Shown here: positions 5,400 through 64,000 of the stretch, in pieces
How positions within the stretch are numbered: the stretch's first letter is position 1
Layout of the letters: the number at the start of each line of letters is the position of its first letter
Origin: a virus
Lineage: Duplodnaviria > Caudoviricetes
DNA length: 64,000 nucleotides
Strand: one strand, 5' to 3'
Virus record (IMG/VR): IMGVR_UViG_3300021387_000199
Coordinates: 70,295 to 134,294 of that record
Made by a program: the position numbers and the translations under genes
Notes under the pieces: model-generated
What the model was told of the DNA's origin: nothing
What the model saw: only the letters and a program-made list of their open reading frames with translations
Databases searched by the model: none

Positions 5400-5564
5400 T
5401 TAATCTCGGATATAATTAAGGACGTCACTTAATACAGAGCCGAAATCGTTAAGCATCCGCTTTGACTACGGGATTTTGATGAGGCGTTTTACCCGTTCGG
5501 CTAACTGATGGATCAGCTATCCAATCAAAGCGGAGACGATTGCTTGAAAGAAAAGATCCTTCAT
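5400..5564 (-). CDS. 54-aa amphipathic peptide, type I toxin-like, with 2 in-frame TAG
   Basis: RBS AAGGAGGTGG; MKDLFFQAIVSALIG*LIHQLAERVKRLIKIP*SKRML... ends TAA; own promoter and downstream hairpin. Confidence 0.55.
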
Positions 5565-5650
5565 GACAACCACCTCCTTCCTCTGTGTTAGATGGTGCTA
5601 AGTAAGAGATCACCCATCACTGTCCATCATTGTGGTGGGTGATTACCCGG

Positions 5651-5679
5651 ATTATATACCTGAAAGAAAAGATACACAA
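5651..5679 (-). promoter_or_regulatory. sigma-A-type promoter for the 5564 peptide
   Basis: TTGTGT-N17-TATAAT on the - strand. Confidence 0.65.
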
Positions 5680-5699
5680 GTTATTTCAGGCTGTGCTTC

Positions 5700-5726
5700 A
5701 AAGGGGATCCTTCGGGGTCCCTTTTA
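5700..5726. terminator. intrinsic terminator-like hairpin
   Basis: AAAGGGGATCC-TTCG-GGGTCCCCTTTT. Confidence 0.6.
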
Positions 5727-5820
5727 GATTGGGCCGCAGTATAATGGATAGACGGAGTAAAGTCAAGACTTGTTTGAACGGGGGAATGGAGATAATATTA
5801 TAGAAGGAGGTGTATGTGCT

Positions 5821-6441
5821 ATGAATGATTCCGCAGATAATAAAAACGATAAGAAAGAAGAAAAGAAATATATCGTTACTCGTCCACAAAAAGTGGTTTC
5901 TGAATATGGTTATGATCCGTCGTTGGCAAGGTATCTGCTGTCAAGATTGTTCTTCCCGATTCTTTTATGTCCTTTCTTAATGCTTATTCAAGGCGGGTGG
6001 ATTTTTATTCCGATTATCTTGTTTAGCGTGATCGGAACTGCTGTTTATAAGTATTATGAATTGTATCCGAAATCCCGCCCGGCAACGGAATCAGAGATCA
6101 GAGTTTATAAGCTTATGAAGATGAGGGAAGCGATTAAAGCTAAAGATCGCTACGACGCACATATTAGTACAGTAGACGAATTTGGTTGGTATAAAGATCG
6201 GGGCGATCGGTACAGCGACAAAACAATAAAGACTATTAATCTTTACGAATTTGATGAGAATGAAATACCAGATTGGTTTTGGAAAGATAAAAAAAGAAAA
6301 GAAACAAAGTTTAGGGAAGAAATTAAAAAAGGCTTTTCTGAAATGGAAGAGGAGTATGGGCCAAACTGGTACGAAATATGTAAGAAGGAGGTAGAAAATA
6401 GTGGTCTCTGGAACGTTAATTAGAAAAGCTTCAAGGTTTAA
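5821..6441 (+). CDS. membrane protein (2 TM); ends at 6423 in code 11, at 6441 if TAG is read
   Basis: RBS AAGGAGG; hydrophobic segment LFFPILLCPFLMLIQGGWIFIPIILFSVIG. Confidence 0.7.
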
Positions 6442-61258: not shown

Positions 61259-61798
61259 ATGAAACTGAGATTTAAAAGCTTTGTTTTATCTGTATTACTT
61301 CTCCTCTGTATATCTGTTCCGGCGATAGCAGAGGAAGCCTTACCAGTTGTTTTTTCATTCCCTCAGAAAACGTACACAGTCAATCCGGGCAAAACGACCA
61401 CCATTAAGCCGCTTCTTCCTGAAGGGGTGAAAGTCGTTAAGTGGAAGGTAAGCAACAAGAAGATCGTTAAGATCAGCCAGAAGGGCAAAATCAAGGGGAT
61501 CAAAAAGGGTAAGGTAAAAGTTACCGCCATCTCAAACACCGGCGAGAAGATTGTATGTAAAGTCAAAGTCGTACCGAAAAAGAAAACTACGGCAACAACC
61601 GCAAAAAAGAAATCTTCCTCAAAAAAGAAGAGTAGTAGCGGCGGCGGTTCTTCCGGTGGTGGTACGGTCTACTGGACCCCTAGTGGGAGCGTGTATCATT
61701 ACTCCGCCGGCTGTTCTACCCTGAGCAGATCCAGAACTGTATATTCGGGGACAATAGCTGAAAGCGGAAAACCAAGAGGCTGCAAAGTGTGTGGGTAA
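61259..61798 (+). CDS. secreted Ig-like (Big_2) protein with a C-terminal His/Cys metal-binding domain
   Basis: signal peptide; WKVSNKKIVKISQKGKIKGIKKG; VYWTPSGSVYH...C...CKVC. Confidence 0.8.
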   Translation: MKLRFKSFVLSVLLLLCISVPAIAEEALPVVFSFPQKTYTVNPGKTTTIKPLLPEGVKVVKWKVSNKKIVKISQKGKIKGIKKGKVKVTAISNTGEKIVCKVKVVPKKKTTATTAKKKSSSKKKSSSGGGSSGGGTVYWTPSGSVYHYSAGCSTLSRSRTVYSGTIAESGKPRGCKVCG

Positions 61799-61935
61799 TA
61801 TCTTTTTCTCCCAGGAGCGGGCGGGCTTAGGCTCGTCCGTTTCCGCGTATATTCCGCAAAGAGTACTTTTCGGAAGGCTCTGGGGTTACAGGCAAAATAA
61901 AAAAGACCCTCACCAGGAGAGTCTTTCTATCTTTT

Positions 61936-62157
61936 TCAATTTTTCAGAAGTTCTAAAACTTCCTCAACGGTCTTGCCGGAATCCTTGAACGCCGCCATGA
62001 GCGTCTTTATTTTCTCGGCCTCTTTCTCTTTCAGGAGATCTTTGAGTTCAGCTTTCTTTTCTTTGATCGTCTCGCTGAGTTCCTGAATTTCTGCTTCGAC
62101 CTGTTCGATCCTCTGGTCTATAGTAAGGTCGACTTTCTTTTTGCGTCCTCTTGGCAT
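61936..62157 (-). CDS. small coiled-coil protein
   Basis: RBS GAGGAGG; MPRGRKK...SGKTVEEVL. Confidence 0.7.
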   Translation of the reverse strand: MPRGRKKKVDLTIDQRIEQVEAEIQELSETIKEKKAELKDLLKEKEAEKIKTLMAAFKDSGKTVEEVLELLKN

Positions 62158-62159
62158 GG

Positions 62160-62549
62160 TTAATCCTCCTCGTCTTCGTAATCCTCTGGGTGTTTGGCTA
62201 TTTCTTCCAAGTGCTTCCGTCTGAGTTCTTTTTCATCTTCTACCATCCTGTAGAATGCTGAATCATCGGTAACACAATTTCTATCTCTGAAGTCCCGGTA
62301 TTCGTTCGCTATCCATCTGGGGGCATAGAATTCCAATTTCTCTATTTGGAAATCTGGGTCGTCAGGGAATGCTTCGGCAAGTTGTTTAAAAACATCTAAA
62401 CGCCTAAACGTATTCTTGCCCCATTCTTTGACTTTGTCCTCAGTAGCTGGCACTATTGTGTCCCCTACCTTAAAATGAAAATAGTAATTCCCATTTTCAT
62501 TTACGTAAGCCGACATATAACCGTCACTGGCGATCAATTTTTGACTCAT
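62160..62549 (-). CDS. hypothetical protein
   Basis: RBS AAAGGAG, intact ORF. Confidence 0.65.
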   Translation of the reverse strand: MSQKLIASDGYMSAYVNENGNYYFHFKVGDTIVPATEDKVKEWGKNTFRRLDVFKQLAEAFPDDPDFQIEKLEFYAPRWIANEYRDFRDRNCVTDDSAFYRMVEDEKELRRKHLEEIAKHPEDYEDEED

Positions 62550-62683
62550 CCGGCACTCCTTTCTATTTTATATGGCAATAATGTACCTTCAGAATAATTG
62601 TATCATTCTTTTAGAAAAAACGCCATATGGTTTTTTATGATTTTTTCTTTTTTTCTTTTTTTCGAGATATTATCACCGTGTAA

Positions 62684-64000
62684 TAAATTCCAGTAAGGCC
62701 GACTCATCTTGGGTCACTACTCAGATCAATAATAAGAATTCTTTCGGAAACATCACACTTACTTCAATTGCATCTATGACGGGGGATCTGAATTTCAAAA
62801 CATCTGCCGCCTCTAACGATACTCCAGATATTACTTGGTGGTATAACAATGGGCAAGAAAAAATGAGGATTTTTGCTCCAAACGAACCTACTACGAAAGT
62901 TGGTCCATCTTTTAGAATTTATGACAAGACTGGAAAACAACTTTACTCAGGGACATTGGCAGTCGTTTAAATTCCAGAGTAGAAGCTAATACTACAAACA
63001 TTTCAGGGAAACATCCGAATATGTCAGGGTTTTACTGGCATCCTCAAGCTGCTTATAATATAGACACCATTTATAATAACGAATATGGAATTCATGTATA
63101 CTGGTGTTCAACAACATACTCAGGCACAAAGCCAAATGTTGGAGGAAATCAAATTGTTCTAATATGCCATAATTGTGGAGGAAGTAATTATCAAGCACAA
63201 TATGCAATTTCATTTGGCGGAGGAATAGCTTCAAGAACTATTTCAAACGGGAAATGGAATTCATGGAAAATATTTAGTTAAATTCCAGAATGAATGATTT
63301 CCCTGTAATAAGAGCTGCATCGTTCGAAAAAACAATATAGAACGGATATATAGGCATTCGTCATCCAGAGGATTTACCAGCAGGAATTAAAAAAATGTTT
63401 GTCCAAAATCAATACGGAAGTGGACTTACGTATTTTTTTACTACCCAACCTATGGGTTCTGGATCAACTTGGATCTATATTCGTAATCTTGATGGGTCGT
63501 ATGCAACTGGAAAAGTCATAGTACACGTCCTTGCGATTTATTAAATTCCAGAATAAATACTGCTGACTCAATGATAAACAGTTTATTAAAATGGACATAT
63601 ATAGCCGTTCATGATTTTTCGGTAAATAAAACGGATACCTTCACAGTAAGCATTCCTAAAGCAGCTAAAGAAATCTATATTGAATACGGAAATAAGAACC
63701 AAAACCAAATATATTCTGGTGGGGCATTGATTTTGATAACGAACTCGCAATATTCACATCCTTCTTTTGTACCTTCGTATAATGGTGATAGTTTAGTTAA
63801 TATTTATTATATGTTTTTATTAAACTGGAGTCTTAGTATTTACAAACAATGGGGAACCCCAATTGGCCGAGTTGCTGTGTATTATCGGTGATTAAATTCC
63901 AGAATAGCTGATATATCAGGTAAAATCTGGAAAGTTATTAAAGGCACGGTGACAGTATCATCAAATCAGGCAATTATATATTTTAATACAATACCGATTG
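62684..64000 (+). mobile_element. shufflon-like array of at least 5 start-less tail-fibre C-terminal cassettes
   Basis: TAAATTCCAG at 62684, 62968, 63279, 63542 and 63893, each opening a frame N-S-(S/R) that runs to the next site. Confidence 0.75.

Follow-up and report, generated by a model that had tools for sequence, protein, structure and literature searches.

The codon TAG is very probably decoded as glutamate in a phage genome that we label G0. This genome is represented by one 134,294-bp virus contig (IMGVR_UViG_3300021387_000199), and our analysis centered on its bases 70295-134294, a stretch of 64,000 nucleotides that we call the window. Decoding would proceed via a phage-encoded tRNA that carries the anticodon CUA on a tRNA-Glu core, called tRNA(CUA) here, which the glutamyl-tRNA synthetase (GluRS) of the host may charge, and the altered codon would serve in the timing of late genes. 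A first-pass annotation of the window had proposed that TAG stands for glutamate rather than glutamine, and every check that could be computed favored glutamate. The assignment is strongly supported by a calibrated comparison that includes an internal control; how the tRNA is charged and the part that the code plays in regulation are inferences.

In-frame TAG codons and their decoding

Open reading frames (ORFs) were listed for the whole genome with TAA and TGA alone as delimiters. By this criterion, the genome splits into a plus arm and a minus arm. The plus arm has genes from approximately genome 56 kb to 126 kb that are nearly free of in-frame TAG, and within the window it corresponds to a standard-code region (window 1..56100, plus strand) whose annotation with Pfam and PHROG includes DnaB, primase, Pol III alpha, NrdD/NrdG, dUTPase, guanylate kinase, RNA-repair enzymes, and two integrases. 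The minus arm comprises genome 1-56 kb and window 56.4-63.5 kb, thus spanning the contig end; in a circular genome, the two parts would be joined. Located on this arm are the late genes for RNA polymerase (RNAP), terminase, portal, capsid, a giant tail protein, and an endolysin of the GH73/amidase domain type, and it also includes PhoH and homing endonucleases (Pfam/PHROG) as well as an accessory cysteine desulfurase and an adhesin. Among ortholog-supported codons, TAG occurs at 4 of 9392 positions on the plus arm (0.43 per 1000) and at 109 of 11975 positions on the minus arm (9.1 per 1000), where it makes up 10.7% of all Glu-type positions. Judged by TAG density and gene content of the two arms, recoding is skewed toward late, structural, and lysis genes, and early genes use the standard code.

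The first-pass annotation had counted about 37 in-frame TAGs in 15 ORFs of the window. We reproduced this count, with 35 TAGs in 14 ORFs from the listed starts and two more at 5400..5573 (minus strand), and the accompanying statement that TAG-bearing ORFs contain no in-frame TAA or TGA holds for all of them. Homology across the TAGs is firm for the cysteine desulfurase (5 TAGs), the adhesin (15), and the genes at 59933-60313 (3) and 60884-61126 (2). The count of 37 also includes candidate ORFs that are small or have N-terminal TAGs, namely those at 5400-5573 (minus strand), 34632, 50174, 59858, and 63254/63281. One 6814-codon minus-arm ORF outside the window has 83 TAGs and no in-frame TAA or TGA. 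Likewise, a 936-codon ORF on the same arm (14 TAGs, the number also counted for the RNAP gene) and the terminase gene (10) have neither of these stops in frame. The products of the terminase, portal, RNAP, endolysin, and cysteine desulfurase genes, among others, are full length only when TAG is read through. The 84 ortholog-supported genes of G0 terminate with TAA (57) or TGA (27) and never with TAG, which is the terminator of ~22% of the same genes in standard-code relatives. These patterns show that UAG is a sense codon in G0, with TAA and TGA as its terminators.

To determine which amino acid is favored at TAG sites, we used a decoding test based on related loci. A terminase query yielded 80 related loci from IMG/VR, and in-frame TAG occurs in the shared late genes of only G0 and two other genomes: G1 (IMGVR_UViG_3300012007_000008) and G2 (IMGVR_UViG_3300021255_002052). 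The remaining ~75 relatives use the standard code, and these alone served as column profiles. Sixteen late-gene families were aligned, and the log-odds of each amino acid were summed for each codon of each recoded genome. For calibration, all sense codons were evaluated in the same manner, and 61 of 61 were assigned correctly in each of G0, G1, and G2. The 37 TAG sites of G0 in the 16 families score +17.8 for Glu, -51 for Asp, -59 for Lys, and -63 for Gln, and Glu was returned in 2000 of 2000 bootstrap replicates over these sites. Glu is also the best residue for the 39 TAG sites of G1 (+15.8). The same procedure assigned Gln (+17.1) to the 43 TAG sites of G2, with Glu at -77, and thus this genome provides a built-in control.

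The difference between the Glu and Gln log-likelihoods, LL(E)-LL(Q), is +81.0 at the TAG sites of G0. Random samples of the genome's own Glu-codon sites give 79.9 ± 15.3, whereas samples of its own Gln-codon sites give -63.8 ± 17.4 with a maximum of -9.4 among 2000 samples. The value for TAG is within the range of the Glu-codon samples and outside the range of the Gln-codon samples, which argues that TAG in G0, as seen through these alignments, behaves exactly like a glutamate codon. Per-site scores are 0.48 for TAG, 0.56 for GAA, and 0.24 for GAG.

A profile of TAG columns had been proposed in the first-pass annotation as a means to distinguish Glu from Gln, and these columns proved to be enriched for Glu and not for Gln, both in the late-gene families and in a gene of the window. 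The latter encodes a cysteine desulfurase of the IscS/NifS type (Aminotran_5; 56742..57860, minus strand; Pfam E=3e-67; PDB cysteine desulfurases E=4e-86), in which five TAGs are in frame (first bases on the minus strand at 57800, 57704, 57677, 57548, and 57494). When compared with 103 cellular homologues, Glu is the commonest residue at four of the five TAG columns, and the sites score +8.4 for Glu and -1.5 for Gln. The gene's own five CAG codons score +7.6 for Gln with the same homologues. TAGs of this gene are located opposite GAG, TAG, and GAG in G1 and opposite GAA/GAG in L167 and L168, ENA contigs of two further relatives that were found through the cysteine desulfurase. The own TAGs of these two contigs fall at Glu columns, such as that in GAEPExIIF, where Glu is present in 96 of the 103 cellular homologues.

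A second proposal was to examine whether TAG alternates with Glu or Gln codons in related phages. For this purpose, codons were paired between G0 and all orthologous segments in the whole G1 and G2 records. TAG codons of G0 are opposite TAG (32), GAA (20), GAG (17), and CAA/CAG (8) in G1, a separately assembled genome with 77% protein identity, and opposite GAA (30), GAG (13), and CAG (2) in G2. TAG therefore swaps with GAA and GAG, with 37 Glu versus 8 Gln codons in G1 and 43 versus 2 in G2. TAG codons of G2 show the opposite preference, pairing with CAG (26), CAA (10), and GAA/GAG (11) in G0. TAG sites of the window are opposite 15 Glu codons, 4 TAGs, and 1 CAG in L167 and L168.

Some TAGs outside the window coincide with glutamates of evident functional relevance. 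Six TAGs of the terminase gene are in columns with Glu in at least 48 of ~50 relatives. In the GH73 endolysin (genome 24766-26415, minus arm), the first TAG, marked x in the motif AQACLxNGYG, falls at the position that Glu occupies in the GH73 motif of FlgJ (AQAALETGWG; 2zyc), and a deposited FlgJ mutant (3k3t) has Ala at the matching position. The catalytic-Glu motif AxxLE(S/T)GWG can be recognized in the endolysin only if TAG is Glu. We take the aligned Glu to be the catalytic general acid of GH73, and therefore Gln at this position would disable the enzyme.

The CUA suppressor tRNA and its proposed charging

An amber suppressor tRNA with the anticodon CUA is encoded at 48480..48552 (plus strand). 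It folds as a cloverleaf, matches the Rfam tRNA model with 50.5 bits, and is the one tRNA found in the window by ARAGORN and Rfam. Its features include C1-G72, G2.U71, A73, U11-A24, U13.G22, A46, A37, and C38, along with the D stem UUCU/GGAA and a 4-nt variable loop (GAAC) that lacks position 47. Major determinants of Glu identity are U11-A24, U13-G22:A46, and a missing nucleotide 47, and there are GluRS enzymes that charge no tRNA without this core (PMC9976931). The suppressor carries all of these core determinants of the E. coli identity set. From the anticodon-loop set (U34, U35, C36, and A37), only U35 and A37 are kept, and the weak determinants G1-C72 and U2-A71 are replaced by C1-G72 and G2.U71.

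Features that would direct the tRNA toward glutamine were also considered. The amidotransferase GatCAB requires U1-A72, and glutaminyl-tRNA synthetase (GlnRS) is sensitive to the acceptor end, including the discriminator base (PMC9976931). The tRNA-Gln marks, namely the weak first pair U1-A72 and G73, are absent from the suppressors of G0 and G1 and from two others described below (L161 and L166), all of which have C1-G72 and A73. Host tRNA-Gln has U1-A72, G73, and a 5-nt variable loop (chromosomal type). The discriminator base meant for GlnRS is G73, in agreement with G73 in host tRNA-Gln. Variable loops of 4 nt are found in the Clostridia tRNA set among Glu, some Gly, and Trp tRNAs, one Arg tRNA, and one Met tRNA. 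In a global comparison with 58 Clostridia tRNAs, conducted with the anticodon masked, all four suppressors best match tRNA-Glu by a modest margin, and the best match of the G0 suppressor is tRNA-Glu(UUC). A BLAST search of tRNA(CUA) against five Clostridia genomes returned T-arm matches only.

The suppressor belongs to a family whose members in G1, L161, and L166 show compensatory stem changes. The G1 representative has the same acceptor stem and 4-nt loop but carries A11-U24 and A13.A22 and has a Firmicute-style tRNA-Glu D arm. An exact and degenerate pattern scan of IMG/VR for this tRNA found G1 as the only other carrier. The corresponding scan of JGI metagenomes gave two true tRNAs (L161 and L166) and four chance matches. 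L161 (Ga0247610_10006810) is an unrelated TAG-recoded contig with its suppressor at L161:5303-5375 and with ORFs that contain up to 11 TAGs (L161:2905-4140). The 11-TAG protein has no relatives in IMG/VR and almost none among the loci studied here.

Additional observations were made on these tRNAs and their surroundings. The anticodon loop of the G0 suppressor, CCCUAAC (window 48512-48518), has C33 in place of the near-universal U33, which is present in the suppressors of G1, L161, and L166. G0 also encodes a phage tRNA(UUG) for Gln (L003:6743-6815; genome 42743-42815, minus strand) whose core is Glu-like (U11-A24, U13.G22, and a 4-nt variable loop) and which has A1-U72 and G73. At the syntenic spot in G1, a tRNA(UUG) is located directly beside the CUA suppressor. 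A scan for promoters and terminators around tRNA(CUA) revealed nothing above shuffled controls.

Related standard-code prophages exist in Clostridia, for example in Ruminococcus sp. AM36-2AA and in metagenome-assembled genomes of Lachnospiraceae, Blautia, and Eubacteriaceae, and gut or rumen Clostridia are the candidate host group. GatB is present in four of five candidate host genomes. The idea that these hosts lack GlnRS, and hence cannot glutaminylate CUA tRNAs, was rejected because a GlnRS-type gene is likewise present in four of the five. No gene for GluRS, GlnRS, or a release factor was found in the records of G0, G1, and G2, which are 60-88% complete.

These features can be arranged into a model for the use of TAG during infection. 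The tRNA(CUA) would be made together with early and middle gene products, and host GluRS would load it with Glu via the kept core (U11-A24, U13.G22:A46, and no nucleotide 47) together with A37 and U35. GlnRS and GatCAB would refuse the tRNA because it has C1-G72/A73 rather than U1-A72/G73. The Glu-charged tRNA would then beat release factor 1 (RF1) at UAG. Late proteins, including the endolysin with TAG at its catalytic Glu, would be made at full length only after the tRNA accumulates, and thus the code would act as a timing gate, a role already suggested for other phages with altered codes. The same tRNA would be needed to make the integrase, whose gene begins with ATG-TAG. The location of the tRNA gene in the standard-code arm and the concentration of TAG in late genes fit the timing-gate model of code-15 phages.

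Several observations weigh against decoding as glutamate by way of host GluRS. Strong determinants for E. coli GluRS include U34 and C36 (PMC9976931), and the G0 suppressor has C34 and A36 in addition to the unusual C33. Some glutaminylation of tRNA(CUA) is possible because GlnRS-type genes are present in candidate hosts and because Gln was the residue that 28 of 29 CUA tRNAs from phages inserted in an E. coli extract (PMC12636597). Completeness of the G0 contig is ~83% (CheckV estimate, IMG/VR), so that a factor encoded by the phage itself may have escaped notice. At a minority of TAG sites, the paired residue is Gln, Lys, Asp, or yet another, although the same is seen comparably often at the genome's own GAA and GAG sites, and a few TAG sites of the adhesin and of the gene at 61126 pair with Gln, Tyr, or Pro in G1. 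Finally, the assignment is based on alignments, which reveal the residues tolerated by selection rather than the residue inserted.

Three other explanations were weighed against decoding as glutamate. It is unlikely that decoding is ambiguous, with UAG read mostly as Glu but to a substantial extent also as Gln (through host GlnRS) or as a stop, in a mixture that may shift during infection. CUA anticodons attract GlnRS in E. coli and the candidate hosts have this enzyme, neither a release-factor gene nor an RF1 inhibitor was found in the phage records, C33 is odd, and termination at TAG is expected early in infection. However, TAG encodes the catalytic Glu and several invariant Glu residues, and much of the protein would therefore be wasted if Gln were inserted at a high rate. 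Furthermore, the per-site score of TAG is on par with those of GAA and GAG, and C1-G72 and A73 oppose GlnRS identity.

A far less probable explanation is that TAG means glutamine according to genetic code 15, as gene callers and public databases assume for G0. TAG occupies invariant Glu columns of the terminase as well as the catalytic Glu position of GH73, the tRNA(CUA) lacks U1-A72 and G73, and the value of +81 for TAG is beyond all 2000 Gln-codon samples. The same method does return Gln for G2. These results stand against the facts that code 15 is the sole amber reassignment described for phages, that the database copies of the desulfurase from G0, L167, and L168 were translated with Gln, and that a few TAG sites are opposite CAG or CAA in G1. 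We consider it almost certain that the TAGs are not untranslated remnants of pseudogenes or a degraded prophage, nor assembly or base-calling errors that turned GAG into TAG; the evidence does come from metagenome assemblies only, but every break is in frame and is TAG, never TAA or TGA, the TAGs are concentrated on one arm, 32 are common to the separately assembled G1 and more are present in two ENA assemblies, many are opposite GAA, from which TAG differs at two positions, the genome encodes a dedicated tRNA(CUA), and third-position bias around a TAG indicates purifying selection.

TAG-bearing and other genes of the window

Next to the cysteine desulfurase on the minus strand is a gene for a wall-anchored, secreted, adhesin-like protein (57915..59660; Pfam PF20597) that has 15 in-frame TAGs and no other stop across 581 codons. 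Its layout consists of a signal or transmembrane (TM) segment, a pAdhesive_15 domain (choice-of-anchor A type), a Glu/Thr-rich tract, a PKTGDxTP sorting signal, and a C-terminal TM segment. The first-pass annotation had drawn on three sequence contexts in this protein. The acidic tract is indeed nearly free of Gln, with 58 Glu, 1 Gln, and 9 TAGs in 135 residues, and the TAG that precedes GHMWP is opposite the GAG of AEGHMWP in G1. The TAG in the sorting signal is opposite an Asp codon in G1 (PKTGDDSP, codon GAC).

A small membrane-associated protein is encoded at 59933..60313 (minus strand) with TAGs at 60052, 60046, and 59989. Its two TAGs in the context SVDxRxVY, which had been cited in favor of Glu, are opposite two GAA codons in G1, where the sequence is SPEEREVF. 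The G1 ortholog has TAGs of its own that are opposite TCT and GAG in G0. The small ORF at 60884..61126 (minus strand) has an 81% identical ortholog in G1 and two TAGs, at 61078 and 61066. These are opposite CAA and TAT in G1, and therefore they offer no support for Glu.

Several single TAGs on the plus strand look at first like artefacts of start-codon choice, but these lie inside genes, judged by motifs, conservation, codon pairing, or profile matches. A Dam-type DNA adenine methylase (14993..15730) that aligns to T4 Dam (PDB 1yf3) has one TAG at 15119-15121. The SAM-binding motif FCGGLSV precedes this TAG, which is therefore inside the gene. The use of this site as evidence for Glu did not hold, since T4 Dam carries Ser there and the site is uninformative regarding the residue. 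In the gene for an ERCC4-type nuclease (38935..39471; Pfam PF02732), the one TAG at 38968 is kept in G1, whose ortholog has three more TAGs, one of them opposite GAA in G0. The conserved phage protein phrog_6721 (41968..42639) has one TAG at 42088 that is also kept in G1 (96.5% identity), and the PHROG profile covers residues 2-219. The stretch upstream of this TAG differs from G1 at 6, 2, and 28 sites in codon positions 1, 2, and 3, respectively, and is therefore coding. A small ORF at 41478..41729 has one TAG at 41496 that is opposite GAC in a 72% identical G1 ortholog. Lastly, a SPOR-domain protein (49161..49934; Pfam SPOR) has one TAG at 49197, just ahead of an internal ATG. The alignment with G1 crosses this position, pairing IDTLTxMNKLV (x, TAG) with ISTLKEMNKLF, in which Glu is encoded by GAG.

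The tyrosine integrase gene (54865..56097, plus strand) has TAG as its second codon. The start region reads AAGGAGGAGCC ATG TAG, and a strong Shine-Dalgarno sequence, AAGGAGGAG, is located six bases ahead of the ATG-TAG (window 54850-54870). The M-x-N start is shared by the L168 integrase, and it is from this point that the proteins align. Because the gene opens with ATG-TAG, integrase synthesis would depend on the suppressor tRNA.

Two plus-arm genes, at 5761-6441 and 15663-16259, had been described as ending in TAG with a backup stop nearby, and we find the same arrangement, with TAG 6 and 7 codons ahead of TAA/TGA. Such genes would stop at TAG early in infection, and their products would acquire a short extension after the suppressor becomes active. 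The plus arm also encodes a fused polynucleotide kinase, phosphatase, and RNA ligase of the T4 Pnkp/Rnl type (window 52560-54806) and a nucleotidyltransferase of the RlaP family (window 32701-33786). The two resemble a toolkit for repairing tRNA or RNA, which is of note in a phage that relies on one special tRNA. At the end of the window (62925-63888) are plus-strand ORFs, one of which bears TAG, whose orthologs in G1 are strand-flipped relative to the flanking synteny. This reversal suggests a flipped, possibly invertible segment that adjoins a tail-fibre gene running off the contig start.

Related phages, known codes, and the meaning of TAG

A terminase tree has the form (L006,(G2,(G0,G1))), where L006 is a standard-code locus, with SH-aLRT support of 99-100 from a quick method applied to one gene. 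G2 resembles G0 in that both belong to one clade, their late genes are syntenic (60-75% identity), TAG is about as frequent (9.7 per 1000 codons in G2), and each has its own tRNA(CUA). They differ in that TAG is Gln in G2, whose suppressor (L086:730-821), a tRNA of 90 nt, combines G73 and a mismatched A1.C72 pair with an extended variable region, or an insert, of ~23 nt. Only one TAG position is common to G2 and G0. Either recoding arose twice in these sister lineages or the meaning of TAG switched after recoding. It is probable that, within one small clade of Clostridia phages, TAG has two meanings, Glu (G0, G1, L167, and L168) and Gln (G2), that are set only by the body of the suppressor tRNA, and that a Clostridial GluRS or a phage factor charges a tRNA changed at positions 34 and 36.

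Only two reassignments, TAG to Gln and TGA to Trp, have been reported for phages whose code differs from that of the host, a limit that has been explained by GlnRS and TrpRS being easily hijacked (Borges et al. 2021, bioRxiv 10.1101/2021.08.26.457843). The background given in the first-pass annotation, that described phage amber recoding yields Gln, agrees with that report. For 180 suppressors of phages, the isotypes predicted were Gln, Trp, Ile, and Tyr (PMC10879173). Groups assigned to code 15 include crAss-like, Lak, Agate, Topaz, and phAss-1 phages (Borges et al. 2021; Peters et al. 2022, PMC9523058; PMC10607447), and phAss-1 has been annotated under table 15 (Babkin et al. 2023, PMC10607447). 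We found no kinship of G0 to phAss-1 or to other published GenBank phages, with a best terminase match of 25% identity. Our search of the literature, which was not exhaustive in coverage, found no report of a phage that reads TAG or UAG as glutamate, in keeping with the earlier suggestion that this is an undescribed phage code.

Code-15 phages share several traits with G0, including TAG in late, structural, and lysis genes, standard-code early genes, a tRNA(CUA), the lack of an aminoacyl-tRNA synthetase, and the loss of TAG as a terminator. Their hosts are standard-code gut bacteria, and the host of G0 may likewise use the standard code. However, these phages insert Gln with a tRNA-Gln body, whereas G0 would insert Glu with a tRNA-Glu body. 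Furthermore, integrases of code-15 recoded prophages reportedly avoid in-frame stops (Borges et al.), whereas the second codon of the G0 integrase is TAG.

The eukaryotic precedent named in the first-pass annotation was confirmed in that the NCBI tables with TAG as Glu are only 30 (peritrich ciliates) and 31 (Blastocrithidia), both of which also have TAA as Glu. These nuclear codes are like that of G0 in the meaning of TAG but unlike it in the meaning of TAA, which is the main terminator in G0. In addition, G0 uses the recoded codon in only part of its genome, and the host cell itself presumably uses the standard code. Laboratory amber suppressors offer another comparison. Normanly and Kleina reportedly observed in 1990 that E. 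coli amber suppressors derived from tRNA-Glu and carrying CUA were largely glutaminylated. Such suppressors are like that of G0 in having a tRNA-Glu body with CUA, but the latter differs by its C1-G72/A73 end and, as the sequence evidence indicates, by delivering Glu.

Existing annotations are affected by the choice of code. Gene callers that apply code 15 place Gln at each such site, catalytic glutamates included, and this is already the case for G0 proteins in public databases. The cysteine desulfurases of G0 (P0001), L167 (L167:4166-5287), and L168 (L168:5379-6512) are stored there as translated with TAG as Gln, and these sequences thus carry Gln where the alignment evidence indicates Glu.

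A phage that reads TAG as Glu would break the rule that recoding is restricted to Gln and Trp, and this code is absent from the NCBI tables that we checked. Charging would also require GluRS, an enzyme that in E. coli recognizes the anticodon, to take a tRNA bearing CUA. Sister phages in which one codon stands for two amino acids would constitute a natural experiment on how the meaning of a codon is set and how it changes. If our assignment is true, tRNA(CUA) is a natural amber suppressor that inserts Glu, and it may be of practical use as one.

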